From: Verrucomicrobiia bacterium
Lineage (GTDB): Bacteria > Verrucomicrobiota > Verrucomicrobiia > JAWXBN01
Reading direction: 5' to 3'
Length of the DNA: 64,000 nt
Assembly: GCA_033764445.1 (NCBI GenBank)
Contig: JANRIZ010000058.1
Location: 178 to 64,177 of the forward strand
Positions 26,960 through 52,832 of the stretch are shown piece after piece; the first letter of the stretch is position 1, and each line of letters opens with the position of its first letter. The translations under genes were made by a program, and so were the position numbers. A model generated the notes under the pieces. It searched no databases. It was not told where the DNA came from and saw nothing but the letters and a program-made list of their open reading frames with translations.

Positions 26960-27203
26960 GACTCAGTTCCTTCTCAAGATCATGAAAATCAACAATAAAC
27001 GAATCAATGCCCATCCGCGCCAGTGCCATTAAGAAATCTGTGCGATCCATCCCCGCCAAAGTGGCGGCAACCTCCTGAGAGATGCGCCCCTGGGAATACC
27101 ACAGGACTGCGGCAGCCAATACCAACTGCTTGGATAAATGCACCGGGTCCTCGCGAGTGGCGGAGAAGACAGAGTCGGGTAGCTCCAAGGTCAATTTGGT
27201 CAT
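26952..27203 (-). CDS. UPF0175-family antitoxin
   Basis: 83 aa; LAAAVLWYSQGRISQEVAATLAGMDRTDFLMALARMGI; overlaps the toxin start. Confidence 0.85.
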   Translation of the reverse strand: MTKLTLELPDSVFSATREDPVHLSKQLVLAAAVLWYSQGRISQEVAATLAGMDRTDFLMALARMGIDSFIVDFHDLEKELSRG

Positions 27204-27246
27204 GCTGGTTCTTTTATCATATTTCGATCAAAACACAATATTGATC

Positions 27247-27380
27247 AACGTCCAACGCCCAACCCTGGACACTCAACGCAACATGGGCGGCATCCGCCTT
27301 CGCCGAGGCTTCGGCCTGAAAGACCCGATCTCCGGGCGGGTCTCAGGGGACAGGGCGGCGGCGGCGTGGCCGTTCGCCCT
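27247..27380. repeat. ~130-bp structured direct repeat, copy 2
   Basis: Near-identical to 26238-26366; ends on the stop codon of the PfkB gene. Confidence 0.9.
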
Positions 27381-28509
27381 AAAGGGTCTGGAGGAATTTG
27401 ATCAGCTCGTCAACGGTCGGGCTCTTGGCGTTGCGCACGTAGAAGCCGGAGGTGGCCACGCCGCATTGGAGCGAACGCGCCAGCTTGAAGCCATTGATGT
27501 AGCCGAGGCAGAAGCCGGCATTGAAGTTGTCCCCGGCCCCGGTCGTCGTCAGGGGTTTGGCGGTGTAGGGTCCGTCCACATGCATGGCTTCCTCCGCCGA
27601 GGCGGCGGCGGCGTGGTCGGTCGGATGCACCACCACTACGCTGATGCCGAGTTTTTCACGGATTTTGACGGCCATGTCCACACTCAGGGCCTGTTTTTTG
27701 CCCGTCGGCTTCAGGCCCAGCACGGCACAGGTCTGTTCGGCCTCGCTGAGGTTCAGGCCGAGAACGGTGTTGAAATGCGGCTCAAATTTCCCGATCAGGC
27801 CCAGGGCGGTCTTCAGGTCCTCCCTGGTCCGTTTGCCGGGGTCGGCGAGATCAAAAAACACCGTGCGCCGTTCCCCCTTCATCGCGGGGGCGATCTCCTT
27901 GAGGAAACTCTTCCAGATTTCGGTCATGTGGGGAAGCATGGTCCAGTTGACCAGACCGATGAACTTCGCATCGGCAAAGGTCTTGGTCAGGGCCGGCAGG
28001 GCGATTTTTTTGGTGATATTGGCCCAGCTGACCTGCCCGAGGGTCTCGTGTTTGCCGCACATGATCTTGCCGTCATCGAATTCCAGCGCATCCGTCACGC
28101 CGGGGTCGGCAATGGAGATGACCTTGGCGCGTTTGGCAAACTCGCGAAAAACGGGGTGCAGGTCGGCGGAGGCCCCCAGGATCCCGATATAGGTGATGGG
28201 CATGCTGAAGGAGACCATTGCATTGGCCATGATCGGCCCGTTGCCACCCAGCTTGTTGTTGACGGTCACAAACTCCACATTGGTGCTCTTGCCCGCGGCA
28301 TCCCCGAGGCGCTTGGCGTAGGCCTTGATGGTCGGCACCTTCTCATACGCGGTGGCGGATGTGCGCTTGTCCACCACGTGGATGATGTTGTCCACAAACC
28401 CGTCAAAACCCACCACCCCGGGCACCCGGCGGATTTTGGACTTCGAGCTGACGAGGGCTTCGGCGGTTTGGCGGATGACTTGCTTGGGATTGAGGGTCGT
28501 GATGTTCAT
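27379..28509 (-). CDS. PfkB/ribokinase-family carbohydrate kinase
   Basis: KLGGNGPIMANA and TTGAGDNFNAGF signatures; start placed at ATG 28509. Confidence 0.85.
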   Translation of the reverse strand: MNITTLNPKQVIRQTAEALVSSKSKIRRVPGVVGFDGFVDNIIHVVDKRTSATAYEKVPTIKAYAKRLGDAAGKSTNVEFVTVNNKLGGNGPIMANAMVSFSMPITYIGILGASADLHPVFREFAKRAKVISIADPGVTDALEFDDGKIMCGKHETLGQVSWANITKKIALPALTKTFADAKFIGLVNWTMLPHMTEIWKSFLKEIAPAMKGERRTVFFDLADPGKRTREDLKTALGLIGKFEPHFNTVLGLNLSEAEQTCAVLGLKPTGKKQALSVDMAVKIREKLGISVVVVHPTDHAAAASAEEAMHVDGPYTAKPLTTTGAGDNFNAGFCLGYINGFKLARSLQCGVATSGFYVRNAKSPTVDELIKFLQTL

Positions 28510-28690
28510 ATAAATAAAAGAGAGAATTAAGAGCGCGCGGTTATAATGAAAAAACGGAATATTGGAAAGCCTTAATTGTGGTTCTTTCCCACAACCCCCT
28601 TTCCGCACCCTGTCCCGGGAAAGCAAAATTAATCATTGACGCCCGCTTGGGACGTGACATCCGGGCGGCTTTCTGGGATGTAATCCGGCC

Positions 28691-29356: not shown

Positions 29357-29602
29357 ATGAGAACCACCCTCACATTATCAGACCAACTCATGGCACGGGC
29401 GAAACGTGATGCCCACCGGTTGCGGCGGAGTTTCAAAGATGTGGTCAATCAAGCCATTGCTTTGGGTTTGGACGAGTTGGAAAAGACGGGTCGTGGAAAA
29501 CCCTATCAGACCAAACCGACCCCCATGGGACTGCGAAAGGGTTTGAATTACGACAATATCTCGGAATTACTCGCCCAGAGTGAAGCAGAGGACTACAAAT
29601 GA
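29357..29602 (+). CDS. vapB: VapB-type ribbon-helix-helix antitoxin
   Basis: MRTTLTLSDQLMARAK..RRSFKDVVNQAIALGL; ATGA overlap with the toxin. Confidence 0.85.
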   Translation: MRTTLTLSDQLMARAKRDAHRLRRSFKDVVNQAIALGLDELEKTGRGKPYQTKPTPMGLRKGLNYDNISELLAQSEAEDYK

Positions 29603-30033
29603 TATTGGTTGATGCGAATATCATTCTCTATGCCGAGGATAGTCTCTCGGAAAATCATGAGGCGGCACGGGAATGGTGGGATGCCCAACTTTCCGGTGTC
29701 AATCCTGTGGGGTTATGTTGGCCGGTGCTCAGTGCTTTCATGAGAATTTCAACCAACCCGAGACTGCATCAGCGCCCCCTCACAACCAAGGAGGCCACCC
29801 GGAGGATCGGGAGTTGGTTGGACCAACCCTGTGTCCAGGTCATCGAGGCTGGTCCGGATCATTGGAGGTATTTTCGCGCCTTGCTGGAACAGGTCAATGC
29901 CACTGGCAATCTGGTGTCCGACGCCCATTTGGCAGCACTCTCGCAGGAAGTGGGAGGGGTGGTGTGTTCGACGGATCGGGATTTTGCCATGTTTCCCAAA
30001 ATCAAATGGAAAAATCCACTGTCGTCCCATTAA
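29599..30033 (+). CDS. vapC: VapC PIN-domain toxin
   Basis: MILVDANIILYA, F.RISTNPR, GNLVSDAHLAAL, STDRDF, WKNPL. Confidence 0.9.
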   Translation: MILVDANIILYAEDSLSENHEAAREWWDAQLSGVNPVGLCWPVLSAFMRISTNPRLHQRPLTTKEATRRIGSWLDQPCVQVIEAGPDHWRYFRALLEQVNATGNLVSDAHLAALSQEVGGVVCSTDRDFAMFPKIKWKNPLSSH

Positions 30034-30117: not shown

Positions 30118-31638
30118 ATGCAAATCCAATTCGGCATCGAGACGGAGTTCGGGATCACCCGGCAGGATCCCCGGGATATTGACGTCGTGGCCGAGTCCAT
30201 TGCCCTGGTCCGCAGCACCTCGGAACCGGGCGTGCGGATGCGCTGGGATTATTCGGCCGAGGATCCGCACCGGGATGCCCGCGGGTTCCGCGTGCAGGAG
30301 CTCCGCCAGGACCTCGACGAGGCCCATTACTTCGCGCAGGATGCCCGGCGTCCGCTGAGCTTCAGCGAAATCAAAAGCGATCTCGCCCTCAGAAACGGGG
30401 CCCGGTTCTACAACGACCATGCCCATCCGGAATACTGCACCCCGGAATGTTCGACCCTTCGGGAAATCCTCCAGCAGGACGCGCTCGGCGAAAAACTGGT
30501 CATGGCCTGCGCCCGCACCCTCAACGAGCGGTCCGGCAATCCGGTGCTTCTCTACAAAAACAACACGGATTTCGAGGGGCACAGCTATGGCACCCATGAA
30601 AACTACCTCCTGCCCCGCTCGCTGCCCTGGCAGCACCTGGCCATGGGCATGCAGGCGTTCCTGGTCACTCGCCAGATTTTCTGCGGCGCGGGCAAATACG
30701 GCTGGGAGGCGGAGGACCGTTTCCTCCAGCCGGGGTTCCAGATCTCCCAGCGGTCGGATTTTTTCAGCGAACTCCAGAGTGTGGATACGATGCAGCGCCG
30801 CCCGATTGTCAATACGCGGGATGAACCCCACGCACAATTTGAGAAATGGCGCCGTTTCCACGTCATCCTCGGGGACGCCAATCTCTCCCCCTTTGCCAAC
30901 TTCCTGAAGATCGGGACCTCGGCCCTGGTCCTTCAGGCCCTGGTCAACGGCGCACCCACGGAGCGGATGCCGCGCCTGGAGGACCCGCTGGGGGCGCTGA
31001 AGGCCTTCTCCCGGGACCGTTCCTGGAAATGGCACTGGAAAAACGCGGCGGGCCGGGCCACCAGCGCCCTGGAGATTCAGCACGAATATCTCGCCCTGGT
31101 CCGTCAGTACGCCCGCCCCACGGACCCCGATTGGTGCCGTCTGTTGGAGGAATGGGAACGGATACTCGCCGATCTGGAAAGGGACCCGCTTGCGACGGCG
31201 GACCGGCTGGACTGGTCGGCCAAATTCACGCTGATTGAAACATTCCGGGAATCCGAAAAAATCGGACCGGAGGATCCCTGGCTGCAAAGTCTGGACCTCA
31301 GCTACCACGAATTGGATCCTGAAAACGGTCTGTATTTCGGCCTGCGCCAATCCGGGCATTTTCTCCTGCCCTACACACCCGCCGAACTGACCCTGACGGA
31401 TTTTTCCGCGCCCCCGACGACACGGGCGGCGGTCCGCGGGGCCTGCATCGAAAAATTCGGACCGGCGGTGACGGCCTCCCAGTGGGACCACGTCCTTCTT
31501 TCCTCGCCGAAGGGAACGGTCCGTATCTCCCTCCTTGATCTTTTCCTGCCCGCGCAGATTGCCGAGGGTCTGGGCGCGATCCGACACGCCTCGACGCCTC
31601 TGGACCTCCTGTCCCTTCCCTGCGCGAGTCTGGGGTGA
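30118..31638 (+). CDS. dop: Dop-type deamidase/depupylase (PafA2 family)
   Basis: FGIETEFGI, NGARFYNDHAHPEYCTPEC (DHAHPEY is Dop-type), SYGTHENYL, RPIVNTRDEPHA, RRFHVILGDAN. Confidence 0.9.
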   Translation: MQIQFGIETEFGITRQDPRDIDVVAESIALVRSTSEPGVRMRWDYSAEDPHRDARGFRVQELRQDLDEAHYFAQDARRPLSFSEIKSDLALRNGARFYNDHAHPEYCTPECSTLREILQQDALGEKLVMACARTLNERSGNPVLLYKNNTDFEGHSYGTHENYLLPRSLPWQHLAMGMQAFLVTRQIFCGAGKYGWEAEDRFLQPGFQISQRSDFFSELQSVDTMQRRPIVNTRDEPHAQFEKWRRFHVILGDANLSPFANFLKIGTSALVLQALVNGAPTERMPRLEDPLGALKAFSRDRSWKWHWKNAAGRATSALEIQHEYLALVRQYARPTDPDWCRLLEEWERILADLERDPLATADRLDWSAKFTLIETFRESEKIGPEDPWLQSLDLSYHELDPENGLYFGLRQSGHFLLPYTPAELTLTDFSAPPTTRAAVRGACIEKFGPAVTASQWDHVLLSSPKGTVRISLLDLFLPAQIAEGLGAIRHASTPLDLLSLPCASLG

Positions 31639-31715
31639 GGTCATTTTCATTTTGCAGGGGTCCCGATCGTTTGTGCCCCCGTGGACTTTGTGGTTCCAAC
31701 GCCCCATTTCACCGT

Positions 31716-31743
31716 TTGCTTATTCGTCCATCGGGGTTAGGAT
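31716..31743 (+). promoter_or_regulatory. Candidate sigma70-like promoter for ubact-prcB-prcA
   Basis: TTGCTT (31716-31721), N16, TAGGAT (31738-31743), 5 nt before ATG 31749. Confidence 0.45.
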
Positions 31744-31748
31744 GGGGG

Positions 31749-31928
31749 ATGCCAGACCCCATCCAAAAACAGCGTCCCGTGGCCCCGGCCCCCGGCGGTG
31801 GCGGGGGGGAGAGCGGAGGCCCCCAGTCGCCGAAGGTTGAAAAGCCGGATGTCAATGAACTGCTCAAGCGCATGAAAAAGGTCGACCCGGACCAGGCCCG
31901 TCGCTACCGTCAGCGCACCGGCCAATGA
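31749..31928 (+). CDS. ubact: Ubiquitin-like (Pup-analogous) modifier UBact
   Basis: 59 aa, MPDPIQKQRP...ELLKRMKKVDPDQARRYRQRTGQ; C-terminal R[ST]G[EQ]; lies between dop and the proteasome beta gene. Confidence 0.9.
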   Translation: MPDPIQKQRPVAPAPGGGGGESGGPQSPKVEKPDVNELLKRMKKVDPDQARRYRQRTGQ

Positions 31929-32710
31929 CCTCCGGAGCCGGATTCCACCTTATGAACGGCGACTTTCTTTCCCTCCTGCCCCGGACGGGCATTCCGTCCC
32001 TGGTCCAGACCGAGGGCCAGTCCGCGCCCCTGCAGGGGACGACGGTGTTTGCGTTTCACTGTGCGGAGGGCATTCTCATCGCCGGGGACCACCGGGCCAC
32101 GGCGGGAAACATGATTTTTTCGGACAAAACCGAAAAGATTCTCGAGCTCGACACCCACTCGGTCATGGCCATCGCGGGCGCCCCGGCCACGGCCTTTGAA
32201 ATGGCCCGCGTTTTGCAGACGAGTTTTGAGTTTTACCGCCGCAGCCAGCTCCAGCCGATGAGTCTCCCGGCCAAGCTCCGCGCCCTCTCCCGCCTGCTCC
32301 GCGAGAATCTTCCGGCCACCTTGCAGGGGTTCGGTCTGGTGGCACCGATTTTTGCGGGGGTGGATCAAAATGCGCCGGAGGCCCGTCCGGGAATCTTTTT
32401 CTACGATCCGCTGGGCGCCCAGTTCGAGGCGGCGCAATTTGCGGGCAGCGGCTCGGGTTCCGCCAGCATCAAAAGCATCCTCAATCATCTGGAAAAATGG
32501 GGCGTGCCGCGTCCGGAAAAAATGTCCCTCCGCGAGGCGGTCGTTCTCGCCAACCGGCTGCTGATCACCGCGGCGGATTTTGACACGGCCACCGGCGGGG
32601 TCCATCCGGAATCGGGTCTTTTTGCCACGGTCAAACTGCTTTCCGTCACCGGCATCCGCGACATCCCCGGCGGGGAACAAACCGCCTTCTGGAAGGAGGC
32701 ACACCGATGA
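31925..32710 (+). CDS. prcB: 20S proteasome beta subunit
   Basis: Propeptide followed by LQG|TTVFA (Thr1), AGDHRAT, EKI, GSGS. Confidence 0.9.
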   Translation: MTSGAGFHLMNGDFLSLLPRTGIPSLVQTEGQSAPLQGTTVFAFHCAEGILIAGDHRATAGNMIFSDKTEKILELDTHSVMAIAGAPATAFEMARVLQTSFEFYRRSQLQPMSLPAKLRALSRLLRENLPATLQGFGLVAPIFAGVDQNAPEARPGIFFYDPLGAQFEAAQFAGSGSGSASIKSILNHLEKWGVPRPEKMSLREAVVLANRLLITAADFDTATGGVHPESGLFATVKLLSVTGIRDIPGGEQTAFWKEAHR

Positions 32711-33423
32711 CGGAGGAACCTTTCCGGTGGCTGGAGGCGATCGCCAACCGTCGTGAATACATCAGGGACCAGCTCTCGGGCGGCACACCTGTTTTTGCCG
32801 TGTCGCGTCCGGAGGGCATTTACCTCCTGGGTGTGGGCTCGGGCCACAGCAAGGTCTTTGAGATTTATGACCGGCACGGTTTCACCGCGCTGGGCAACCC
32901 GGTGGATATTGAAAAAATCCGGCAGACGGCCATCGAAGCGGCCCACTTGGAGGGTTTCAACCGCTCGGCGGCGGATGTCACCCTCAAGCGTCTGATCAGT
33001 TTTTCCCTGGGTCCGGCCCTCAAAAACAGCTTCGAGCAGATTTTCTCCCCCCCCTTCATCCTCGAGGGGATTTTTGCGGAATTGTCGGGCGCCCCCTCTG
33101 AGGATCATCTGGTCCGCATCCGCTACGACGGGAAATACGAGTTTGTCCCCCAGGGCATCGCCGTGGCGTTCACGGACCCCCCCCGCGAAGCCGAAGCGGT
33201 GGGATGGCTCAAAAAAACACTCGCAGACACGGACTCCCCACGGGAGCTGGCCTCCACCCTTTTGACGGCCTGGAAAACCCTCCGCGAGGGGGGGGCGTTT
33301 GACAAGGTCCAGCCGCTCACCGACCTCAGGCCGGTCCTGAACGAACGCATCCTCGAATTCGCCCTCCTCGACCGACGCTCCTCTCAAAAGGTCCGTTACC
33401 GCCCCCTCGCCCTGGCACTCTGA
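32707..33423 (+). CDS. prcA: 20S proteasome alpha subunit
   Basis: KVFEIYDR, G...DIEKIR, EGFNRSAADVT, LEFALLDR; ATGA overlap with prcB. Confidence 0.88.
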   Translation: MTEEPFRWLEAIANRREYIRDQLSGGTPVFAVSRPEGIYLLGVGSGHSKVFEIYDRHGFTALGNPVDIEKIRQTAIEAAHLEGFNRSAADVTLKRLISFSLGPALKNSFEQIFSPPFILEGIFAELSGAPSEDHLVRIRYDGKYEFVPQGIAVAFTDPPREAEAVGWLKKTLADTDSPRELASTLLTAWKTLREGGAFDKVQPLTDLRPVLNERILEFALLDRRSSQKVRYRPLALAL

Positions 33424-33487
33424 GTCCGCACGCCAGTTCCTCCGCGCGGCTTGACCCCACGGGGGGCTTTTGCTACTGACAAACCCC

Positions 33488-36055
33488 ATGTCTGTCAGCG
33501 CCCCAGCGGCCCCACTCCTCCCCGTGAAACCGAATTCAACCCTCGGTCCGCGTGGCCGGGTCATTCCCAGTGCCAAATTCTTTTTCCGGGGCGGACAGAA
33601 GTTCTTCCTCAAGGGGGTCACGTACGGACCGTTCCAGCCCTCCTCCCCGGGGGTCCATCTGCACGGTCCGGAAAAAACCGCCCAGGACCTGGAATTGATC
33701 CGTCAGATGGGGGCCAATGTCCTCCGTCTGTACCACGTCCCGCCCCGCTGGTTCCTGGACCTCTGCGAACAGTTCGATCTCCAGGCCCTGATCACGATCC
33801 CGTGGGAACAACACATCAACTTTCTCGACAGCCGTGTCACCCGCCTGGAAATCCAGGACAAGATCTCCTCGGGGGTCTCGGCCAACCGCGGGCATCCGGC
33901 CATTTTCGGATACATGGTCGGCAACGAAATCCCCACGGGCACCATCCGCTGGTACGGTCTGCCCCGTGTCAAGGCCTTCGTCGAAAACCTGCTGGAACTT
34001 GCCAAGGAGGCCGACCCGAAGGCCCTGGTCACGTATGCCAATTTTCCCAGCACGGAATATCTGATCCCCAACAATGTCGATTTCTACTGCTACAACGTGT
34101 ACCTCGAAAAGCAGGAGGTTTTCGAACGCTACCTCGCCCGCCTGCACAACATCGCCGAGGACAAACCGCTGATCCTCGGGGAATTCGGCATGGACTCGAT
34201 CCGCAACAGCCAGGAAAAACAGGCGGAAACCCTCGACTGGCACATCCGCACGGTCGGCAAAATGGGGCTGGCCGGCACGATTGTGTTTGCCTGGACCGAT
34301 GACTGGTTCACCGGCAACCACCAGATCACCGACTGGGCCTTCGGACTGGTGGATGCGCAGCGTCAGCCCAAAAAGGCCTACCACGCGGTCCAGGAATGTT
34401 TCATCCGGGGGGCGGACGGACGGGCGGGGCAGCGGGTGCCCCTGGCCCATTACCCGCGGGTTTCCATCGTGGTCTGCTCCTACAACGGCGCACGGACCCT
34501 GCAGGCGTGCATGCAGTCGCTCCAGGAAATCGATTACCCGGATTTTGAGATCATCCTTGTCGATGACGGCTCGAAGGACGACACCCAGTCGATCCTGCGG
34601 GATTTTCCGAACGTCAAAAACATCCGCCAGAAAAACATGGGGCTTTCCTACGCCCGCAACGTCGGCTGGCAGGCGGCCTCGGGTGCGATTGTCGCCTACA
34701 CGGATTCCGACTGCATGGCCGACAAGGACTGGCTGTACTATCTGGTGGCCACCCTCCAAAACGGATCCTATGCGGGGGTGGGCGGACCGAACATCTCCCC
34801 GCCGGCGCAGGACTGGATCCAGGCCTGTGTGGCGGCGGCGCCGGGCTCCCCCAGCCACGTGCTGCTGACCGATACGGTCGCCGAACACATTCCCGGATGC
34901 AACATGGCCTTCTGGCGCTGGGCCTTTGATGTGACGCAGGGTTGGGATGTGGAATACCGCAAGGCGGGCGATGACGTGGATTTCTGCTGGCGCCTGCAGC
35001 AGGCGGGCTACGAAATCGCCTTCAGTCCCTCGGCGATTGTCTGGCACCACCGCCGCTTCAGCATCAACGCCTTTTTCAAACAGCAACAGGGTTACGGCGA
35101 GGCCGAGTCCCTGCTGCGGTTCAAACACCTGATCTTTTTCAACCCCAACGGGACTGCCAAGTGGAAGGGCAGTGTGTACGGGCTGCCCCGGTTCGAGCGC
35201 TTCCTGCAACAGCCGATCATCTACCACGGCGTCTTCGGCATGGGTCTGTTCCAATCCATCTACCCCGCCCCGGAATCCGCCTTTGCCGGGATCTCCAGCA
35301 GTCTGGAATGGGTCACCCTGACCGCGTGCGCGGCGGTGGCGAGTCTGGTTTTCCCCGCTTTCTGGATCATTCCCGTGTTCATGTTCCTGGCGACGGTTTT
35401 TACGGGGTTCACCTTCATGGTCCGGGCCCGGCTCGAACCCCGCTACGATACGCTGCTGGCCCGGCTGCTGGTCTGGTGGCTGGCGATTGTGCAGCCGCTC
35501 ATGCGCGGATGGAGCCGGTACTTCACCTGGATCTCCCTCAAACACACCCCCAGCCGCCTGATCGTCACCCATGAGGCGGGCATTCCCCGGTTCCGGTTCG
35601 AACGCGAAAACACCCTCTCCTACTGGAGCAATGAGGGCATCGAACGCGACCGGTTTCTCTCGGAGGTCACGGCCATTCTCGAACACGAAAACTGGCAGTA
35701 TTCGCTGGATACGGGATGGACGGATTGGGACATCCAGGTCTACGGCAACACCTGGTGGGATTGCCGTCTGCGGTCCATGACCGAAAACCACGGGGGCAAC
35801 GACCGTCTCAACCGCATCCAACTGGCCCCGAAAATGACCTCCCTGACCAAGGCGAGCCTGGGCTTGCTGGTGGCCCTGATCATTGTCCTGCATGTCTACC
35901 TGAATGCGGACCCCTACCTCCTGGTTGTCCTTTCCATGATTCTCGGGACGTTCCTGCTCTTCTGGGCGGTGCGGCTGCGCAATCGTCTGGGCGAAATCTG
36001 CGAACTGGCCGCCCGCCGCTGCCGCTTCGTCCGCGTCGAGGCGGAGAAAGGCTGA
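33488..36055 (+). CDS. GH-A (GH2-like) TIM barrel fused to GT2 glycosyltransferase and C-terminal membrane domain
   Basis: KGVTYGPF, VGNEIP and LGEFG; then VSIVVCSYN, VDDGSKD, YTDSD, GCNMAF, AGDDVD, QQQGYG; TM helices in the C-terminal third. Confidence 0.8.
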   Translation: MSVSAPAAPLLPVKPNSTLGPRGRVIPSAKFFFRGGQKFFLKGVTYGPFQPSSPGVHLHGPEKTAQDLELIRQMGANVLRLYHVPPRWFLDLCEQFDLQALITIPWEQHINFLDSRVTRLEIQDKISSGVSANRGHPAIFGYMVGNEIPTGTIRWYGLPRVKAFVENLLELAKEADPKALVTYANFPSTEYLIPNNVDFYCYNVYLEKQEVFERYLARLHNIAEDKPLILGEFGMDSIRNSQEKQAETLDWHIRTVGKMGLAGTIVFAWTDDWFTGNHQITDWAFGLVDAQRQPKKAYHAVQECFIRGADGRAGQRVPLAHYPRVSIVVCSYNGARTLQACMQSLQEIDYPDFEIILVDDGSKDDTQSILRDFPNVKNIRQKNMGLSYARNVGWQAASGAIVAYTDSDCMADKDWLYYLVATLQNGSYAGVGGPNISPPAQDWIQACVAAAPGSPSHVLLTDTVAEHIPGCNMAFWRWAFDVTQGWDVEYRKAGDDVDFCWRLQQAGYEIAFSPSAIVWHHRRFSINAFFKQQQGYGEAESLLRFKHLIFFNPNGTAKWKGSVYGLPRFERFLQQPIIYHGVFGMGLFQSIYPAPESAFAGISSSLEWVTLTACAAVASLVFPAFWIIPVFMFLATVFTGFTFMVRARLEPRYDTLLARLLVWWLAIVQPLMRGWSRYFTWISLKHTPSRLIVTHEAGIPRFRFERENTLSYWSNEGIERDRFLSEVTAILEHENWQYSLDTGWTDWDIQVYGNTWWDCRLRSMTENHGGNDRLNRIQLAPKMTSLTKASLGLLVALIIVLHVYLNADPYLLVVLSMILGTFLLFWAVRLRNRLGEICELAARRCRFVRVEAEKG

Positions 36056-36191
36056 TCCCGGTTTCGGCAGGGGATCGGCATCCATGGAAGTCCCTGGGGG
36101 GATGGGGCCGCGGTATTCCGGACATCCCTTCCTCCTGCGGGATTCGCAATTAGACTTTTTTTCCATTGTCCCTATCGTGTCTTCCACCTGC

Positions 36192-37181
36192 ATGACCCCC
36201 CTGCTCCTCCACCCCAGCCAGTACCCGGAAGCGATCCGCCGGGAACTGCACGATTCATTGCGCTCGGGCACCATCAACCACCGGTTCCATTACGACAGTC
36301 CGCGACAGACGCTCCGGTGGCTGTCCCTCCACGAAAAACATTCCCCCGCCCGGCACGACCGGGGGGTGCAAAAAATTTACCGCACCGCCGCGGCGCATTT
36401 TGCGGCGGGGTTCGGGGGCAGGAACGTCACGGTCATCAGTCTGGGCTGTGGCGGGGGGCACAAGGACCTCGATGTGCTCCGTGCACTCGGATCCCGCGGA
36501 GTGCGGACCACCTATGCCCCGGCAGATATCAGTGCCGCCATGGTCACCACGGCCCGTGAACACATCCGCCGGGGCTGCCACGCACCATGCGCCCCGGGGC
36601 TGGTCGTCTCGCTGACGGCCCTCGATATGAAAACCCTCACCCAATGGATCCCCTCCCGGCATCCGCGCCTGTTTCTGTGTTTTGGCATCCTCCCGAATTT
36701 CCCCCCCCGGGAACTCTTCGGCCTCTTCCGCACATTGTGCCGTCCGGGGGATGCCCTGATGCTCGGGGCCAATCTCGCCCCCGGGACGGATTTTATGGGC
36801 GGCATGCGGCGCATCCTGCCCCAGTACGACAACCGGGAAATGCGCGAATGGCTGTGCCTCTTCCCCCGCGATCACGGGCTCCCGCTCACCCCCGCAGACA
36901 TCCGCTTTTCCATCTCGCCCTGCCCGGCAAAAACCGGCCTCTACCGCATCGACGCCCGGGCCCGGATGACCCGCGGGACGACCCTGACCCTTGACGGGGA
37001 AAAATTCCGGTACCCCCGGGGACGGATTCTGAACCTTTTCTACTCGTACCGCCACCAGCCTTCCACCCTGGTCACCGGGCTGGTCCGGAGCGGATTCACG
37101 CTCCCGAGCACCTTCATCGCCCCCTCCGGCGAGGAAGGGGTGTGTCTGACCGTCCGATCAAATTCCGTTTTGTCAATCTGA
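36192..37181 (+). CDS. SAM-dependent methyltransferase, EgtD/L-histidine N-alpha-methyltransferase-like
   Basis: ISLGCGGGHKD motif I, ADIS, GILPNF, LMLGANL, QYDN, FYSYRH. Confidence 0.7.
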   Translation: MTPLLLHPSQYPEAIRRELHDSLRSGTINHRFHYDSPRQTLRWLSLHEKHSPARHDRGVQKIYRTAAAHFAAGFGGRNVTVISLGCGGGHKDLDVLRALGSRGVRTTYAPADISAAMVTTAREHIRRGCHAPCAPGLVVSLTALDMKTLTQWIPSRHPRLFLCFGILPNFPPRELFGLFRTLCRPGDALMLGANLAPGTDFMGGMRRILPQYDNREMREWLCLFPRDHGLPLTPADIRFSISPCPAKTGLYRIDARARMTRGTTLTLDGEKFRYPRGRILNLFYSYRHQPSTLVTGLVRSGFTLPSTFIAPSGEEGVCLTVRSNSVLSI

Positions 37182-37222
37182 CCGAATCTGATTAGAACAA
37201 TCCACCCAACAGGAGACACCCC

Positions 37223-37708
37223 ATGCCCAGCTTTGACATCGTTTCGGAATGCGACATGCAGGAAATCGACAACGCCCTCAACCAGGCCCGCAAGGAACTG
37301 GCCAGCCGATTTGATTTCAAGGACGCCAAGGGGGACATCAGCCTGCAGGACAAAAAAATCATCAAACTCAGCGCCATCGACGAGTACAAGACGACGGCCC
37401 TGCGGGAAATCGTCCTCACCAAGCTCGCCAAACGGAATGTCAGCCTCAAGAACATCGAGGAAAAGCCGATTCAGAACTCCCTCGGACATGCCTCCTGCGA
37501 ACTGCACATCAAGGAGGGGATCGAACACGGCAAGGCCAAGGAAATCAACGAGGCGATCAAGGGTCTCAAACTCAAGGTGACCGCCAAAAACCAGGACCAG
37601 CAGATCCGTGTCGAGGGCAAAAACCGTGACGATCTTCAGGCGGTCATGGGCCTGCTCAGACAGAAGGACTTTGGCATCGCGCTGCTCTTCAAAAATTTCC
37701 GGGATTGA
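37223..37708 (+). CDS. yajQ: YajQ-family nucleotide/c-di-GMP-binding protein
   Basis: MPSFDIVSE..QEIDNALNQARKE..RFDFK, RVEGKNRDDLQ, NFRD terminus. Confidence 0.95.
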   Translation: MPSFDIVSECDMQEIDNALNQARKELASRFDFKDAKGDISLQDKKIIKLSAIDEYKTTALREIVLTKLAKRNVSLKNIEEKPIQNSLGHASCELHIKEGIEHGKAKEINEAIKGLKLKVTAKNQDQQIRVEGKNRDDLQAVMGLLRQKDFGIALLFKNFRD

Positions 37709-37732
37709 AAGCCGCGGCGATTCTCCACCGGA

Positions 37733-38242
37733 TCAGGCCTCCGACGCCTTTTTCTTCTCCTCCGCGGCCTTGATTTTTTTCACATACCGGGAAATGTCCT
37801 CGTACAGCTTCATCACATTGACCTGTTTCTTTTTCTGCCCCATGCGCTTGGAAATCATTGTCAGCGCATTAAACTGATAGTTGGTCCCCTCCAGGCGGAG
37901 CGTCGGGTCCGTGCCATACTGGTCCCGGACCATCACCCACTTCAGACCCAGTTCATTGGCCAGAATGTCCCCAAAGACCACCCCCAACGCCTGCTGGTTG
38001 AGTTTGTTGCCTTCGACAAACACCTTGTCATTGATCATGGTCTGGATGATGTAAAGATCGGACTTGGTCCCGCTGAATTTTTTGATGCCATACCTGTCCT
38101 CGGCCGTCTTGTACACCCGCAGGCGCTGGGCCTCGAGTTCCTCCTGATCCGCCGGTTTGAGCGGCCAGAATTCGCTCGGACCGGCCAGCAGGGCCGTGTT
38201 TGCCATCAGAACCGTGGAGAGGAGCAGAAGAAGGTGTTTCAT
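37733..38242 (-). CDS. Secreted DUF3806-like protein
   Basis: Signal peptide MKHLLLLLS..; QALGVVFGDIL..LKWVMVRDQYG..MISKR. Confidence 0.65.
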   Translation of the reverse strand: MKHLLLLLSTVLMANTALLAGPSEFWPLKPADQEELEAQRLRVYKTAEDRYGIKKFSGTKSDLYIIQTMINDKVFVEGNKLNQQALGVVFGDILANELGLKWVMVRDQYGTDPTLRLEGTNYQFNALTMISKRMGQKKKQVNVMKLYEDISRYVKKIKAAEEKKKASEA

Positions 38243-38250
38243 GGAAGTGC

Positions 38251-38487
38251 TCAGATTTTGCTGTGGGTTCCGTCGCAAAATGCGCCGTTCTTGGAGTGTT
38301 TGCATCCGCACCAATAGACCTTTTGATCCATGGCAATTTCCACCTTGGTCGGACCGAAATCAGTCCCCTTGTGGGATCCGTCGCAAAAGGGCTGCGCCTT
38401 GGAAAGCCCGCACGCACACCACCAATAGGTGCCGGCTTTCACGTCCTGGGCGATGGGGGACTTCTGGGCAATATGGGGTTCGGACAT
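38251..38487 (-). CDS. Double CDGSH iron-sulfur domain protein
   Basis: WCACGLSKAQPFCDGSH and WCGCKHSKNGAFCDGTH. Confidence 0.92.
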   Translation of the reverse strand: MSEPHIAQKSPIAQDVKAGTYWWCACGLSKAQPFCDGSHKGTDFGPTKVEIAMDQKVYWCGCKHSKNGAFCDGTHSKI

Positions 38488-38744
38488 AAAGTAAGGGCTC
38501 CGTTTTTCCGCAAACTACCATAATAACACGGATATTTGCCACTGTTTTTTTGGAATATCAGCACCGGGATGCTGGCAAGGAAGTTTGAATTTCCGGGTGC
38601 CGATGGTCCGTGCCCTGTCACAGGTCGCCAAGAACCCGGCACCCGACCAACCCGCATGCCAGCGGTGGTTTTGAGGGGAAGGGTTGAGGGAAGGGGGTTG
38701 ACTGTTCCCCGCCGACTGTTTACTCCTGAACGCATTCTTTCCAT

Positions 38745-39929
38745 ATGTCGAAAAAACGTGTCATTGTGATGGGTTTCATGGGCAGTTGCCCGATTGCCGG
38801 GGTTGTCTGGCAGCATCTCCACTATCTGATCGGTCTCAAAGAGCTGGGCCACGAGGTCTACTACATCGAGGACTCCGCCCGCATTCCCTACAACCCCAGC
38901 ACCTTTGAGGTCACCGAGGATTTTTCCTATGCGGCGCGGATGCTGGACCGTCTTTTTCAAAAGCACGGGTTGGGAGCGGAAAACTGGGGGTACTGCGCCC
39001 GGTACCGTCCGGACTCCCCCACCGCGGGGCTTGGCCTGGCAAAAATCCGCGAACTCTACAGGACCGCCGATGCCATTTTCAACGTGTGCGGGTCGCAGGA
39101 ATTCAATGACGATCTGCTCCAGAGCCGGCGCATTCTGTACATTGAGAGTGACCCCGCCGTCGAACAGATCAAACTGGCCAAAGGCAACGAAAACACCCGT
39201 GCCTACCTCTCCCGCCACCAGGCCCTCTTCAGCTTCGGGGAAAACCTCAACCAGACCGACTGCGGGGTGCCGCGGACGGATTTCAAATGGTACCCCACGC
39301 GTCAGCCTGTCGCCACGGCCCTGTGGCAGCCGCCGGAGCGCCGGGATTTCAATCCCGAAAAGGGGGTCTATACCACCATCGCCAACTGGGCCACGGGGGG
39401 GAAAAAGGACATCGAATACAACGGGGAAACCTATCTGTGGAGCAAAAATCCCGAGTTTCACAGATTCTGCGCCGCCCCCCGTCTCTGCGGCGAACTCTTT
39501 GAACTGGCCACGGACATGAAGGACGCCACCGAACGCGCCGGGTTCCTCTCCCAAGGCTGGCAATTCACCCTGCCCCACAAGATGAGCGAGGATATCGACC
39601 TCTATCAGGAATACATCTGGTCCTCGAAAGGCGAATTCACCGTCGCCAAGGACCAGTACACGCGCCTGAATACCGGCTGGTTCAGCGACCGCAGTGCCTG
39701 CTACCTGGCCGCCGGACGCCCGGTCATCACCCAGGCCACGGGATTCTCCAAGTTCATCCCCGTGGGCGAGGGTCTCTTTGAATTCCGCACCCTGGAGGAG
39801 ATCCGCACGGCGGCCGAAAAAATCCGTTCCGACTATTCCCGGCATTCCGCGGCGGCCCGGGAACTGGCCCGGGAATACTTTGAGGCCCGCACGGTTGTCG
39901 GCAGAATCCTGGACGCGGCGGGGATCTGA
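38745..39929 (+). CDS. Putative GT-B glycosyltransferase-like protein
   Basis: GLKELGHEVYYIED, GWFSDRSACYLAAGRPVITQATGF, HSAAARELAREYF. Confidence 0.7.
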   Translation: MSKKRVIVMGFMGSCPIAGVVWQHLHYLIGLKELGHEVYYIEDSARIPYNPSTFEVTEDFSYAARMLDRLFQKHGLGAENWGYCARYRPDSPTAGLGLAKIRELYRTADAIFNVCGSQEFNDDLLQSRRILYIESDPAVEQIKLAKGNENTRAYLSRHQALFSFGENLNQTDCGVPRTDFKWYPTRQPVATALWQPPERRDFNPEKGVYTTIANWATGGKKDIEYNGETYLWSKNPEFHRFCAAPRLCGELFELATDMKDATERAGFLSQGWQFTLPHKMSEDIDLYQEYIWSSKGEFTVAKDQYTRLNTGWFSDRSACYLAAGRPVITQATGFSKFIPVGEGLFEFRTLEEIRTAAEKIRSDYSRHSAAARELAREYFEARTVVGRILDAAGI

Positions 39930-39975
39930 CACAGGTTTTGTTTGGCATTTGAGCCTCCGGCCCTACATTGGAGGG

Positions 39976-41334
39976 ATGAACCGCCGGATCGTGGGATTGG
40001 AAACCGAGTACGGCTGCCTCATCGAGCCTCCGCTCACCAATGACGAGGTCGTGGCCCAGGTCCGCAACTGGGTCTTTACGGAGGGCGGGTACGGCCTCCT
40101 GGACGTGCATGACCGGGGATGGGATGAACCCGCCGGCAACGGGGGATTCCTTTTCAACGGGGGCCGCCTGTATCTCGACATGGGCCATGTCGAATACTGC
40201 ACCCCCGAATGTCTGGATGTCACGGATGTCCTCCGCTACGACCAGGCCGGGGACATGATCCTGCTCCGGGCGGTCGAGGCACTCGGGTGGGAGGGACGCG
40301 TCAGCTTCATCCGCAACAACATCGATCACTACACCGGGGCCACCTTCGGATGCCACGAAAATTACTCCCTCCGGCGGGATGCGGAACTGGATGACGCAGG
40401 CATTGCCTCCCTCCTGGCATTCCTGACACTGCGCACGCTTCTGACCGGTTCCGGGCGCGTGGGGTCTCTCCCGGCGCTCAAGCCGCCGTTTGAGGATGCC
40501 CCGTTTCTCCCGGATTCCCTGTTCCAGATCAGCCAGCGGGCCGACTACATCCGCAACGATTTTTACGAATGGGTCCAGTTCAACCGCGCCATTGTCAACA
40601 CCCGGGATGAACCCCTTGCGGATCCGCGTTCGTTCCGCCGCCTGCACCTGCTTCATGGGGACAGCAGTGTCCTGCCCGCCACCCTTTTCCTGAAAATCGC
40701 CTCCACCCGTCTGGTGCTGGATCTGATGGAGGCGGGCGAATTGCCGCGGGTGGAATTGAGGGAGGCCGTCGGCACCCTGCGTGCGCTCTCCCGCATCACC
40801 ACCGGACCCTGGCCGGTGACGCTGGCCGACGGGCAGCAGCAGGAGGCCCTGGCCCTGCTGCGCCTGTACCACGAAAAGGCGGCGAAACATTTCAGACAGC
40901 GGGCCCCTGAAACGGAGGCGGCCCTGGCCCTCTGGTCCCGCATGATGCAGGCGCTCGAATCCGACAAGCCGGGGGCTTTCGGTCTGCTGGACTGGGTCAC
41001 AAAGGAAACGCTTCTGAACGCCTTTTGCACCCAGGAAAACATCCCGTGGGATGATCCGTGGCTCAAATCCCAGGACCTGGAATTCCATCACATCCACCCG
41101 CAGCGCAGTCTGGCCCATCCCCTCGCCGACCGGCAGGGATGCTGGCATGTGACCGGGGTGGAAAAGGCCACCCTCACCCCTCCATCGAATACACGCGCCC
41201 ATTTGCGAAGCAAAATGATGCGTGAACTGTGCGGACAGAAAAACCATGTCGTGGACTGGTACAAGGTCGGGACGCGGGGGCAGAAACCGACCCTGCTGCT
41301 GGATCCGTTCCAGACGGAACCCGGTCAGGCATGA
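39976..41334 (+). CDS. pafA: PafA-type Pup/UBact-protein ligase
   Basis: RRIVGLETEYG, GFLFNGGRLYLDMGHVEYCTPEC, FGCHENY, RAIVNTRDEPLAD, RRLHLLHGDS; start at ATG 39976. Confidence 0.88.
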   Translation: MNRRIVGLETEYGCLIEPPLTNDEVVAQVRNWVFTEGGYGLLDVHDRGWDEPAGNGGFLFNGGRLYLDMGHVEYCTPECLDVTDVLRYDQAGDMILLRAVEALGWEGRVSFIRNNIDHYTGATFGCHENYSLRRDAELDDAGIASLLAFLTLRTLLTGSGRVGSLPALKPPFEDAPFLPDSLFQISQRADYIRNDFYEWVQFNRAIVNTRDEPLADPRSFRRLHLLHGDSSVLPATLFLKIASTRLVLDLMEAGELPRVELREAVGTLRALSRITTGPWPVTLADGQQQEALALLRLYHEKAAKHFRQRAPETEAALALWSRMMQALESDKPGAFGLLDWVTKETLLNAFCTQENIPWDDPWLKSQDLEFHHIHPQRSLAHPLADRQGCWHVTGVEKATLTPPSNTRAHLRSKMMRELCGQKNHVVDWYKVGTRGQKPTLLLDPFQTEPGQA

Positions 41335-43996: not shown

Positions 43997-45175
43997 ATGT
44001 CCAATATCATCATCTGCCAGAATTGCGGAGGCGAAAACGACCTCGGTCGGAAATACTGCACGGAATGCAACGAAAAACTCGATCTGTCCTCGGTCCAATC
44101 CAAGGCCGCCTCGGGGGGTCTGTCCAAGACGGAAATCCGGAAAAAAATCAGTCTGGGCAACAAGGCGGCAAAAACCACCTCCAGTTCCATCGCCCTCAAA
44201 ACGGTGGCGATCCAGTTCCTGCTTCTGGTCCTGGTCCTGGGCGGACTGGGGCTGATCGGATACACGGTCTTTCTGGCCTACAAAAAACCTTCCGGCATGC
44301 CTGTGTGGCGTCCGTATGCGGATTACAAAAATTGGACGGATCAGGAACAGTTGAAATGTGAAATTGATTTTGAAGGGGCCAACCGCGCCAAATTGGACCT
44401 CGAGGATGCCCTGCTCAACAACATGGATTATGCGGGGTCTGTCAACGAGGAACAGGCCAACGCCTGGCTGAGCCGCTATATCCAGCCCTCGACCAAAACC
44501 CTGCCGGGGGGGATCAAGGTCAAGTTTGACAGCGCCTACGTCAAGTTTCTGGATGACGGCACCTACAAGGTGTTCCTCAAGTATGTCGCCTTCGATCATC
44601 CCTTTTACATGACCTACCGGATCTCCGCCAATCTCGACAGCGGGGCCCTGCTGGTCCGTTACCGGTCCATCAAACTCAACAGTCTTGAAATCCCGAAAAT
44701 GCTCCACGACAAGGCTCTTGGCCCCCTGGACAACCTCGAAAACATCACCAAACCAAACAAAAAACTCATCCTCGGGTGCAATATCCTGGAAATCACCGAG
44801 GAAAAACTGACCATCAAAACGGCGATCAAGGCCCCCCCCCCGGAGGCACCAACTCCGGATGGACCACCCCAGAAACCGGCCCCTCCAAAAAACACGCCTG
44901 TGGTGACACCCGCACCAACTCCCGCAGCTCCACCGGCTCCAGCACCCGGCCCTCCCACTCCGGCCTCCGCAACACCGGCGGTCTCTGCGCCTGCAGCTCC
45001 GGCACCGGTGGCAGCCCCAGCCCCAGCGTCGGCCCCGGCACCGGTGGCGGTACCGATGCCGATCCCAAACTCTCCCGCCACTGCAGCCCCGGCACCCGCA
45101 CCACCCCAGACCCCTCCCCCGCCTGCCATCCCCGCCCCTGTTTCTTCCACCCCCGCGGCTGTTCCCACCCCGTGA
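43997..45175 (+). CDS. Zinc-ribbon membrane protein with Pro/Ala-rich C-terminal tail
   Basis: CQNC..CTEC, one TM helix, about 115-aa PAPA-rich tail. Confidence 0.7.
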   Translation: MSNIIICQNCGGENDLGRKYCTECNEKLDLSSVQSKAASGGLSKTEIRKKISLGNKAAKTTSSSIALKTVAIQFLLLVLVLGGLGLIGYTVFLAYKKPSGMPVWRPYADYKNWTDQEQLKCEIDFEGANRAKLDLEDALLNNMDYAGSVNEEQANAWLSRYIQPSTKTLPGGIKVKFDSAYVKFLDDGTYKVFLKYVAFDHPFYMTYRISANLDSGALLVRYRSIKLNSLEIPKMLHDKALGPLDNLENITKPNKKLILGCNILEITEEKLTIKTAIKAPPPEAPTPDGPPQKPAPPKNTPVVTPAPTPAAPPAPAPGPPTPASATPAVSAPAAPAPVAAPAPASAPAPVAVPMPIPNSPATAAPAPAPPQTPPPPAIPAPVSSTPAAVPTP

Positions 45176-46464
45176 ATCTGTGTCTTTACCGACTCCTGCT
45201 CCCGGCGGTGGTATCGGTGATACTGACCGCTCCCGTCTCGGCTCTCACCCCTGCGGAGACAAAATCCTCCAGAACCAAATCAACCCCGAGCGCCTCGGGG
45301 AAAATTGTCGTGGCCAGTGACCAGCCCGAATTCAACGCCATGCTGGCGGCCTACGGGGATGAACAGCTGCGCCAATTCCAGTCGGTTTTTTCACTCCGCC
45401 CCGAGGACCTGTATCTGCTCCGCATCCAATGGGTCCGTTCGGAGGAACATGTGTGGGACCTGATCCCCTTTGTCTTTCAGGAAAAGCTCTGTTTCCAGCT
45501 CATCATCCAATGTCCTGATAAAATTGATCAGAAAAAACTCGATGTCTTCCTCGCACGGGTCTTCTTTCACTGCCTGGCGGAGTCCGGGAAAAACCCGGGG
45601 GCCGGACGCAACCTCAAAAAACTGCCATCCTGGGTCCCGGAAGGTTATGTCCTGTGGCGCTCCCTGAATGATCCTTCCCCCCCCACCCACACCCTCCGTT
45701 CCCTGATCCTCAACGAGGGGTTCCCCACTCCGTCCCTGTTTCTGACCGCCGACTCCAACTACGATGTCTACTCCCCCTCCCAAAAGGACGCCCTTCAATG
45801 GCTGTGGTTCCGGTCCCTGATGCAAGTCCCCAAGGGCGCAGCCCTTCTGGAGGGATTTCTCAGGGACCTTCCCAATCCCACGGAAAAATGGGCCTTTTAT
45901 TTTCTGAAAAGCTACAAACCCACCTTCGAGGATCTGAACCAACTGGACCGCTGGTGGAATCTGCAGGCGGTGTATCTGACCGATATCGTCGCCGCCGACT
46001 CCATGCCTCCGGCCCAGGTGGAGACGGAACTCAAAAAATTGCTGTTGTTCCCCGGCAAGACCCCCGGGACGGTTTTTCCGCTGGAGGAACTGATCGCCCA
46101 GGATGCCCCCCGGCTGTCGCGGGACCTGGTGAATGAAAAAAAATCCCGTCTCAATGCCCTCGTGTCCCGGGCGTCTCCCTCCTTCGCCACGGTGCTGATC
46201 ACCTATCGGGATCTGCTCGACGACCTCGCCCAGGGCCGCAAACCCTCCCCGGCCCTTCTGGAGGCGCTCTCCGGTCGACGCCTCCAGTTGGTGGCCTACC
46301 AACAGCAGGTTTCCGACTACATGAACTGGTACATCGTCACCCAGACCCCGGCCGATCAGGAACTCTTCCGCCGGGCGATCCTCTCCTACCGGGAACTCGA
46401 ATCACTGAGGGCTCCCGAAAAGACCACGGAACACACCCCGCTTTCGATCCGCGCCGCGCCCTAA
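45172..46464 (+). CDS. Hypothetical secreted protein
   Basis: GTG 45172 overlaps the upstream stop; signal-peptide-like LLLPAVVSVILTAPVSA; LPSWVPEG recalls peptidase-MA-like folds, but no HExxH is present. Confidence 0.55.
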   Translation: MNLCLYRLLLPAVVSVILTAPVSALTPAETKSSRTKSTPSASGKIVVASDQPEFNAMLAAYGDEQLRQFQSVFSLRPEDLYLLRIQWVRSEEHVWDLIPFVFQEKLCFQLIIQCPDKIDQKKLDVFLARVFFHCLAESGKNPGAGRNLKKLPSWVPEGYVLWRSLNDPSPPTHTLRSLILNEGFPTPSLFLTADSNYDVYSPSQKDALQWLWFRSLMQVPKGAALLEGFLRDLPNPTEKWAFYFLKSYKPTFEDLNQLDRWWNLQAVYLTDIVAADSMPPAQVETELKKLLLFPGKTPGTVFPLEELIAQDAPRLSRDLVNEKKSRLNALVSRASPSFATVLITYRDLLDDLAQGRKPSPALLEALSGRRLQLVAYQQQVSDYMNWYIVTQTPADQELFRRAILSYRELESLRAPEKTTEHTPLSIRAAP

Positions 46465-50425: not shown

Positions 50426-50478
50426 CGGACTGTAAAATCTGCTTGGTCTCGCCTCCCGGAACCGTTTAAACCCAGTGC

Positions 50479-51873: not shown

Positions 51874-51974
51874 ACGGTGCACGGGGGCGGCGATAATTTC
51901 ATTTTGTAAATCCCCGGGAATCTGGCCAGAATCATCCTCCCGGCTGGAAACACACCCGGTGCCCGCTTCAGATT

Positions 51975-52832
51975 ATGAAATTTTCCAATCCCCATGCCGA
52001 CCTCCTCATCCCGGATGGCACCCCCCTGCCGCAGGCCCTGGAACGCACCACCCACATGGGAATCGGCGCCCATCAGGATGACCTCGAATTCATGTGTTTC
52101 CACGGCATCCTGGAATGTCACCAAAAAACCGACCGGTGGTTTGCGGGGGTGACCGTCACCAGCGGGTCGGGCAGTTCCCGGACCGGTCCCTACCGGGAGG
52201 TGAGCGACCAAAAACTCGTTGAAATCCGCCGGGAGGAACAGCGCCGTGCGGCCGTCATTGGTGAATACGGGGCCATGATCCAACTGGGGTACGACAGTGC
52301 CACCATCAAGGACCCCCTCGGCGCCCGGACCCGGCTGGTGCCGGAACTGGTGGAAATCATCCGCATCGCCCGGCCCCGGGTCATCTACACGCACAACCCC
52401 GCGGACAAGCATCCGAGCCATATCGCGGTGGTGCTCCCCCTGATCGAGGCCCTCCGCCGTCTGCCGCAGGAAATGCGTCCCGAAAAACTGTACGGATGCG
52501 AGGGATGGCGCAACCTTGACTGGATGCCCGACACCGAAAAGGTGGTGCTGAATGTGGGTGGCAACGAACCCCTCCTGCGCCGCCTCATGTCCGTCTTCGA
52601 CTCGCAAATCGCGGGGGGGAAACATTACGATCTGGCCACACTCGGCAGAAAACAGGCCAACGCAACGTACTTTCAAAGCCACGCCTCGGATCAGGCCGCC
52701 CTGGCGGAATTTGCCATGGACCTGACCCCGCTGCTCCGGGACGATACGCTGTCGGTGGAGGATTTTACGCTGGGCTTCATTGACCGGTTTCGCAATGATG
52801 TCCTTCAAACCCTGCGCAAACAAACCGGATAG
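51975..52832 (+). CDS. PIG-L/LmbE-family N-deacetylase
   Basis: GIGAHQDDLE, IRREEQRRAA, YTHNPADKHPSH. Confidence 0.85.
   Translation: MKFSNPHADLLIPDGTPLPQALERTTHMGIGAHQDDLEFMCFHGILECHQKTDRWFAGVTVTSGSGSSRTGPYREVSDQKLVEIRREEQRRAAVIGEYGAMIQLGYDSATIKDPLGARTRLVPELVEIIRIARPRVIYTHNPADKHPSHIAVVLPLIEALRRLPQEMRPEKLYGCEGWRNLDWMPDTEKVVLNVGGNEPLLRRLMSVFDSQIAGGKHYDLATLGRKQANATYFQSHASDQAALAEFAMDLTPLLRDDTLSVEDFTLGFIDRFRNDVLQTLRKQTG

Follow-up and report, generated by a model that had tools for sequence, protein, structure and literature searches.

The 64,000-nucleotide stretch of DNA analysed here ('the window'; positions 178 to 64,177 of contig JANRIZ010000058.1, assembly GCA_033764445.1, from a Verrucomicrobiia bacterium) carries most of a UBact-type system, in which a Pup-like modifier would be conjugated to proteins and linked to a proteasome. 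We propose, at a probability that we would put at roughly 0.8, that these genes and one further gene elsewhere in the same genome make up a complete and intact-looking pathway, encoded by six genes in three genomic places. The first place is a tightly coupled unit of dop, ubact, prcB and prcA; the second, 6.55 kb downstream, is pafA, which would form a separate transcription unit; and the third, on another contig (C41), is mpa. The six genes are as follows.

30118-31638, plus strand: dop, 506 amino acids, with the Dop-loop; homologue of the UBact deamidase/de-conjugase, matching the Pup_ligase family
31749-31928, plus strand: ubact, a modifier of 59 amino acids with the C-terminus RRYRQRTGQ, matching PF20513 and NF033388
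31925-32710, plus strand: prcB, 261 amino acids, proteasome beta subunit with a 38-residue propeptide, matching PF00227
32707-33423, plus strand: prcA, 238 amino acids, proteasome alpha subunit, matching TIGR03691 and PDB entries
39976-41334, plus strand: pafA, 452 amino acids, UBact ligase homologue without a Dop-loop, matching PF03136 (355.9 bits)
G000:C41:737-2449, minus strand: mpa, 570 amino acids from the likely start Met88, the long match spanning 737-2710

Dop scores 463 bits against the Pfam Pup_ligase family (PF03136), 414 bits against the NCBIfam model for Dop (TIGR03688; cut-off 492.3) and 298 bits against that for PafA (TIGR03686), the latter two both lying below the actinobacterial equivalog cut-offs. 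Its nearest solved structure is Dop 4b0r (E 7e-100), with a full-length alignment that takes in the Dop-loop of about 40 residues. PMC8599861 names, for Dop of Acidothermus (AcelDop), the residues Glu8, Glu10, Trp47, Arg90, Tyr92, Asp94, His95, Glu99, His155, Arg205, Arg227, His231, His241 and Trp453; by alignment to 4b0r, all 14 residues named there are kept in the window's Dop, W47 of AcelDop corresponding to W43, with E8, E10, Y98, E105 and the histidines likewise in place. Positions 8, 10, 43, 45, 96, 98, 100, 101 and 105 are invariant in all 84 aligned homologues, and the best named relative, at 52% identity, comes from a metagenome-assembled genome (MAG) of the Chthoniobacterales, which, together with an atlas taxon lead, points to Verrucomicrobiota as the probable phylum.

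The modifier passes both of its family models, PF20513 (81.9 bits; cut-off 27.8) and NF033388 (86.9 bits; cut-off 35). Its C-terminal half is near-invariant in a 30-sequence alignment (A2), where it reads ...VDPxQxRYRQRTG[QE] with R52 to G58 unchanged throughout, and across 80 related loci the modifier ends in RTGE in 43 cases and in RTGQ, as here, in 37. PrcB scores 95.8 bits against PF00227 and matches PDB 2h6j (E 3e-28); its G38/T39 junction aligns with residue 1 of mature solved beta subunits, and T39, D55 and K71, which occupy the positions of Thr1, Asp17 and Lys33 in the alignment to 2h6j, are conserved in 77-78 of the 79 aligned homologues, the remainder being gaps. prcB is the sole PF00227 match in the genome, that search returning no HslV in the assembled 89.55% of it. 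PrcA is the more weakly scoring subunit, with 55 bits (E 6e-15, below the model cut-off) against TIGR03691, PDB alpha-subunit matches to 1q5q (E 1.3e-9) and 3hf9 (E 2.6e-8), and 40-62% identity to the genes that occupy this position in relatives. ubact overlaps prcB, and prcB in turn prcA, by the 4 nt ATGA, and a GGAAGGAGG stretch lies 7 nt 5' of the prcA start. An earlier note on this DNA, made from its letters, had called dop, a 59-residue modifier ending RTGQ, prcB and prcA at these coordinates, and had read them as a UBact-type system with a coupled prcB/prcA pair and a Gly/Thr propeptide junction; the family scores, far above chance, the two modifier models, the overlaps and the alignment to mature subunits bear out each of these points.

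The second Pup_ligase-family gene of the window lies within a long open reading frame (ORF) that opens at 39694, the family-typical N-terminus MNRRIVGLETEYG beginning at the ATG at 39976. Its start lies 6552 nt from the prcA stop and 7266 nt from the end of prcB, and the spacing between dop and pafA in this genome is 8.5 kb. We take this gene to be pafA because it has no Dop-loop, is orthologous to the sixth gene of canonical UBact loci (47-59% identity) and keeps the active-site motifs GxETEYG, RxYxDMGHxEY, FGCHENY, SQRAD, NTRDEPLAD and RRLH, each invariant in 74 of 74 sequences. The missing loop can be read from the spacing between ETEYG and the RLYLD strand, which is about 55 residues in PafA and about 90 in Dop; according to PMC8599861, the Dop-loop is found in all Dop and in no PafA.

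The activating ATPase is the component that the window does not hold, the earlier note being right on this for the window itself: no Mpa-like gene is found on its contig (C35), including the 30 kb upstream of dop. A search of the whole genome returned one orthologue, on C41, with 430.8 bits against TIGR03689 (model positions 12-499; cut-off 504.75) and Pfam domains PF17758, PF16450 (Prot_ATP_ID_OB_N, Prot_ATP_ID_OB_C) and PF00004 (AAA), giving an architecture of coiled coil, double OB and AAA. The nearest structure is Mpa of M. tuberculosis (7px9; E 3e-92, query residues 152-631), and in an alignment of 31 sequences (A1) that has this genome's Mpa as its first row, no variation is seen in the Walker A motif GPPGCGKT, the Walker B DE, the pore loop MWxG or RPGR. 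C41 is 11.2 kb long, with a GC content of 0.599 (genome 0.584) and, in mpa, a GC content at third codon positions (GC3) of 0.76; its tetranucleotide correlation with the genome (r 0.977) is the 39th lowest in a set of 54 contigs 8-15 kb long, whose median is 0.97. Mpa is 69% and 68% identical to its counterparts in two relatives, G003 and G006, in line with the other components, and the ranking of relatives by identity is the same for every component (G003 and G006, then G026, then G021), which fits a single co-inherited set. The genome encodes exactly two proteins of the Pup_ligase family, a single Mpa orthologue and a single proteasome beta subunit; all six system frames are open, and each catalytic or motif residue checked in Dop, PafA, PrcB and Mpa is kept, so that the degenerate catalytic residues raised as a reason for doubt in the earlier note are not seen.

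That note had also suggested a distant or alternative activator. The first half of the suggestion stands and, with one clear Mpa orthologue on C41, the second is unnecessary. The other AAA matches in the genome include none that is Cdc48-like: a candidate on C171 is FtsH (826 bits), and those on C173 and C121 are single-AAA proteins, not double rings. A search for Bpa/PafE (PF10759) gave no match in this genome and none in 14 control genomes either and, having no positive control, is uninformative.

By homology to the actinobacterial Pup system, the parts would work together as follows. Dop would convert the C-terminal Gln of UBact to Glu by deamidation, a step that a modifier ending in RTGQ would need; PafA would then activate the γ-carboxylate of UBact with ATP and join it to lysines of substrate proteins; a hexamer of Mpa would capture UBact on its N-terminal coiled coils, unfold the tagged substrate and thread it into a 20S particle of PrcA and PrcB; and Dop would also remove UBact from substrates. 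The complex between Mpa and its tag is already solved for Pup, and a structure prediction with two copies of Mpa residues 35-220 and one UBact gave an ipSAE interface score of 0.50, the best of three controls scoring 0.00, with at least 88% contact agreement between runs and a partner pLDDT (predicted local distance difference test) of at least 64. Of 157 solved complexes, 116 reach the mark used for ipSAE, as do 2 of 215 mismatches; at values of 0.60 or less it is reached by only 18 of the 157 and by both mismatches. We therefore regard the prediction as weak support for the putative Mpa-UBact complex; given the solved Mpa-Pup complex, its pass may reflect likeness only.

How unusual the three-place layout is can be judged against two sets of relatives. 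In 80 related loci from other phyla, mostly MAGs of Latescibacterota and Gemmatimonadota, mpa, dop, ubact, prcB and pafA stand in this order within at most 8.1 kb in 70, and the distance from the prcB end to the pafA start in these canonical loci is at most 1269 nt, as against 7266 nt here. Nine further loci are cut by contig ends (among them L008, with ubact on another contig), and a single one (L075) has space for the downstream genes, which are absent. The window's genome departs from the canonical run of mpa, dop, ubact, prcB, prcA and pafA twice over, with mpa on C41 and pafA behind five other genes; contiguity is the usual layout, not a functional requirement.

The second set comprises 201 sampled genomes of the window's own class, with layout counts read from the listed gene places. 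PMC7947786 describes homologues of Dop and PafA as occurring 'very sporadically' in Verrucomicrobia and other phyla. In our sample a Pup_ligase match is found in 51 genomes and two UBact-type ligase-family genes in 49, and the same 49 genomes have exactly one Mpa match (E ≤ 1e-90); this co-occurrence speaks for components that act in trans and for Mpa as their cognate activator. In 37 of the 49 carriers dop and pafA share a contig and are no more than 5 kb apart (several being cut by contig ends or having dop in two frames), and in 11 they are on different contigs, some of which could be plain assembly breaks, or 315 kb apart; mpa adjoins dop in 40 and does not in nine, G142, where dop starts the contig, being ambiguous. 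The earlier note's implication that the split is rare is thus not borne out, since the same scattering recurs among relatives, the following among them.

G006: mpa / dop-ubact-prcBA / pafA, in three loci, each mid-contig on contigs of 74-251 kb
G003: dop-ubact-prcBA-pafA on a 45.5-kb contig (same order as in the window), with mpa absent from the whole contig
G021: mpa-x-dop / ubact-prcBA / pafA
G026: mpa-dop at a contig end / ubact-prcBA-pafA mid-contig
G191: an assembly of four contigs, one of which carries dop and pafA at a distance of 315 kb

The genes are intact in these and other scattered layouts, and the split is present in four of four genomes of one family (f15). In the five scattered genomes examined in detail (that of the window, G000, with G003, G006, G021 and G026), ubact, prcB and prcA are never separated. 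Two otherwise canonical loci of the class have dop in two adjoining frames, covering model positions 1-258 and 258-440 (G180:C10:467451-468837) and 1-218 and 194-440 (G132:C103:30607-32045), which may be either a frameshift or a sequencing error. Two genomes hold Pup_ligase-family genes and have no Mpa match: a tandem pair with frames of 654 and 922 amino acids (G005:C3:38578-41299) and a single frame of 594 amino acids (G182:C80:18665-20320), and in both the fold seems to serve some purpose other than a UBact system.

Several observations weigh against a complete and working pathway. The literature that we searched yielded no experimental study of any UBact system; a 2024 review mentions Ubact in a single sentence. 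Only UBact passes its NCBIfam model, the other components falling below equivalog cut-offs that were built on Actinobacteria, and hidden Markov model scores do not separate the window's PafA from Dop: it scores 272.6 bits against the PafA model TIGR03686 (cut-off 551.3) and 267.2 bits against the Dop model TIGR03688, and in the PDB 211.9 bits against PafA 4b0t (E 1.3e-61) and 207.8 bits against Dop. PafA also has Leu in place of the His of actinobacterial NTRDEPHAD. Docking of Mpa is a further point. The C-terminus with which mycobacterial Mpa docks to the 20S particle is GQYL; Mpa here ends in PPGSI, and of the 81 UBact-linked homologues scored none ends in GQYL, most having a final pair of aliphatic residues (such as VI, VV or IV, as in GQVI, HGVV and RIV) rather than an aromatic-containing tail. 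Docking to the 20S particle is therefore only putative, and, judging by these tails, the docking mode of UBact-linked Mpa may differ from that of mycobacteria. The assembly, a draft, comprises 178 contigs and is 89.55% complete, with an estimated contamination of 1.14%. Finally, neither dop/pafA nor mpa has a match in two genomes from the same family as the window's, which are 97% and 92% complete, so the lineage can do without the UBact system.

This last point bears on an alternative that we judge unlikely, namely that the system is being lost: the scattering would then reflect relaxed selection, and genes that are individually intact would no longer serve one pathway, with, for example, only tagging and de-tagging or only the protease left. 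Such a view would also accommodate the presence of the system in only 49 of the 201 sampled class members, the dop genes in two frames in G180 and G132 (if these are frameshifts), and a gene order around the loci that is wholly unconserved among G000, G003 and G006; the flanks of G003, G006 and G021 share no neighbours with the window except for one gene in G021, described below. It fits poorly, however, with six open reading frames in which all checked catalytic residues are kept, with the joint presence of mpa and the ligase-family pair in 49 of 49 carriers, with a split layout that persists through all four genomes of f15, and with the 4-nt overlaps that the ubact-prcB-prcA core retains here; we accordingly prefer an intact pathway encoded at dispersed sites.

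A second possibility, which we consider very improbable, is that the displaced Pup_ligase-family gene is not a ligase but a second hydrolase, or has a role tied to its neighbours, nifS and a gene for a GT1-like protein. The closeness of the PafA and Dop scores, the Leu for His and the recurrence of the same GT1-like family near the displaced gene in two lineages would all be compatible with this. Set against it are the absence of the Dop-loop, as in every PafA according to PMC8599861; the orthology to the sixth gene of canonical loci; the finding of that Leu in 74 of 74 UBact-type homologues, those of intact operons included, which makes it a family trait rather than decay; and the lack of any other ligase candidate in the genome. 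It is more improbable still that assembly or binning created the apparent scattering, through a foreign mpa contig or a chimeric join between prcA and pafA, for although the 178-contig draft state, the contamination estimate of 1.14% and the position of mpa, 737 nt from a contig end, could be cited in its favour, C41 matches the genome in GC and tetranucleotide composition, the 30 kb of window upstream of dop hold no mpa, the genes between prcA and pafA have the GC3 of the system genes, relatives show the same split on long contigs (74-251 kb in G006; 315 kb between dop and pafA in G191), and the identities of Mpa to those of G003 and G006 are consistent with the other components.

Returning to the six-gene pathway in three places, gene order suggests that its ligase, and likewise mpa, would be regulated separately from the core unit. 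A gene of the DUF3806 family lies between dop and pafA on the opposite strand, so pafA cannot be read from a dop promoter. Judging by spacing, pafA probably forms one unit with the GT1-like gene, which ends 46 nt 5' of it, and nifS, which begins 13 nt 3' of it. A promoter-like TTGGCA-16-TACATT lies at 39942-39969, 5' of pafA; it comes from a scan that returned 7 promoter-like sites where 3.2 were expected, and, these being consensus matches only, we have not used it as evidence. The genes around pafA are the following.

33470-36055, plus strand: a fusion of 861 amino acids, with a GH2-like TIM-barrel (residues 68-309) and a GT2 glycosyltransferase (residues 329-633)
36084-37181, plus strand: a Methyltransf_33-like gene (family match)
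37223-37708, plus strand: yajQ (family match)
37733-38314, minus strand: the DUF3806 gene (family match)
38745-39929, plus strand: the GT1-like gene, 394 amino acids, with no family above cut-off and an atlas lead to Glyco_trans_1_2
13 nt after pafA: nifS

The earlier note had placed pafA about 6.5 kb downstream behind six unrelated genes; the distance is confirmed, and the number comes down to the five well-supported genes of the block at 33470-39929. An ORF of 77 amino acids at 38536-38769, which gave no family match, may be the sixth gene of that note. With a GC3 of 0.75-0.81, equal to that of the system genes, the block is not foreign in composition. It has no homologue next to the system of G003 or that of G006, and in G021 the GT1-like gene alone has one there; none of the five genes shows a link to the UBact system. 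The fusion gene begins 46-64 nt after prcA, and our scan, again not used as evidence, returned nothing terminator-like between the two on the plus strand. The 394-residue protein was considered as a GWxTD protein and rejected, its matches (E 0.0042 and 0.049) lying below the cut-offs and at chance level.

The GT1-like gene does recur near displaced ligases. All four f15 genomes have a homologue, 58-62% identical, 3-8 kb from their displaced pafA, and hold in addition a GT1-like paralogue of 32-35% identity 1-3 kb from it; the displaced pafA thus stands beside members of the same GT1-like family here and, separately, in f15. Family members stand at two places in one G021 locus (L107):

G021:C14:4264-5433: GT1-like family member
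G021:C14:11200-12267: GT1-like family member

In G003, G048, G113, G185, G037, G008, G013 and G040 the gene lies away from pafA, and in G006 and G104 none was found. Chance, old synteny and a functional link are all possible readings of the proximity. One could go further and speculate that the UBact pathway of the class runs as three modules, each under its own regulation (ubact-prcBA, alone or with dop; pafA; mpa), that its ligase has been captured by a neighbourhood of cell-envelope or sugar-metabolism genes, and that the GT1-like protein could serve UBact ligation as a dedicated substrate, adaptor or regulator; taken as a whole, we regard this as distinctly unlikely.

Elsewhere in the window the flanks consist of ordinary chromosomal genes, namely mfd, a surA-like gene, RNase R, truB, grpE, dnaJ and a heptosyltransferase. 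The last of these, of family 9, together with a BamA of 558.5 bits (cut-off 297) on C91, supports a diderm envelope; the host is very probably diderm, as the earlier note had supposed. A gene for a VapC-family PIN toxin (29357-30033, plus strand; TIGR00028, 124 bits) lies 84 nt 5' of dop, and a small ORF that overlaps it from upstream is a likely antitoxin, with only weak VapB/ParD-like matches. Long ORFs of high GC3 with no Pfam match at the thresholds used lie at 27082-28530 (plus strand), 44776-46464 (plus strand) and 50362-55751 (minus strand).

The UBact system of Gram-negative bacteria was reportedly defined in a paper by Lehmann et al. in 2017, BBRC 483:946. The pathway described here resembles that system in its modifier, which passes both models and ends in RTGQ, in its six components and in its core order of dop, ubact, prcB and prcA, the canonical order of 70 of the 80 related loci; it differs in having mpa on another contig and a prcB-pafA distance of 7.27 kb (at most 1.27 kb in canonical loci), with like splits in nine (mpa) and 11 (pafA) of the 49 carriers of its class. 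With the actinobacterial Pup system it shares homologous enzymes, the nearest structures being those of Dop, PafA, Mpa, PrcB and PrcA, a Dop-loop in Dop and not in PafA, and a modifier that ends in Gln or Glu. It departs from that system in enzymes that score below the equivalog cut-offs, in a modifier of the UBact and not the Pup family, in the Leu for His of NTRDEPHAD, in a diderm host, and in Mpa homologues that mostly end in two aliphatic residues and not in GQYL.

What we describe is, then, a known and bioinformatically defined system that opens no new kind of biology, and its sole distinguishing trait is a scattered gene order that recurs in the class. As no experiment on UBact was found in the literature searched, any intact example, this one included, is a candidate for reconstitution. 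Outside the class the six genes nearly always form one operon; inside it, that operon is broken at different joints in different lineages.

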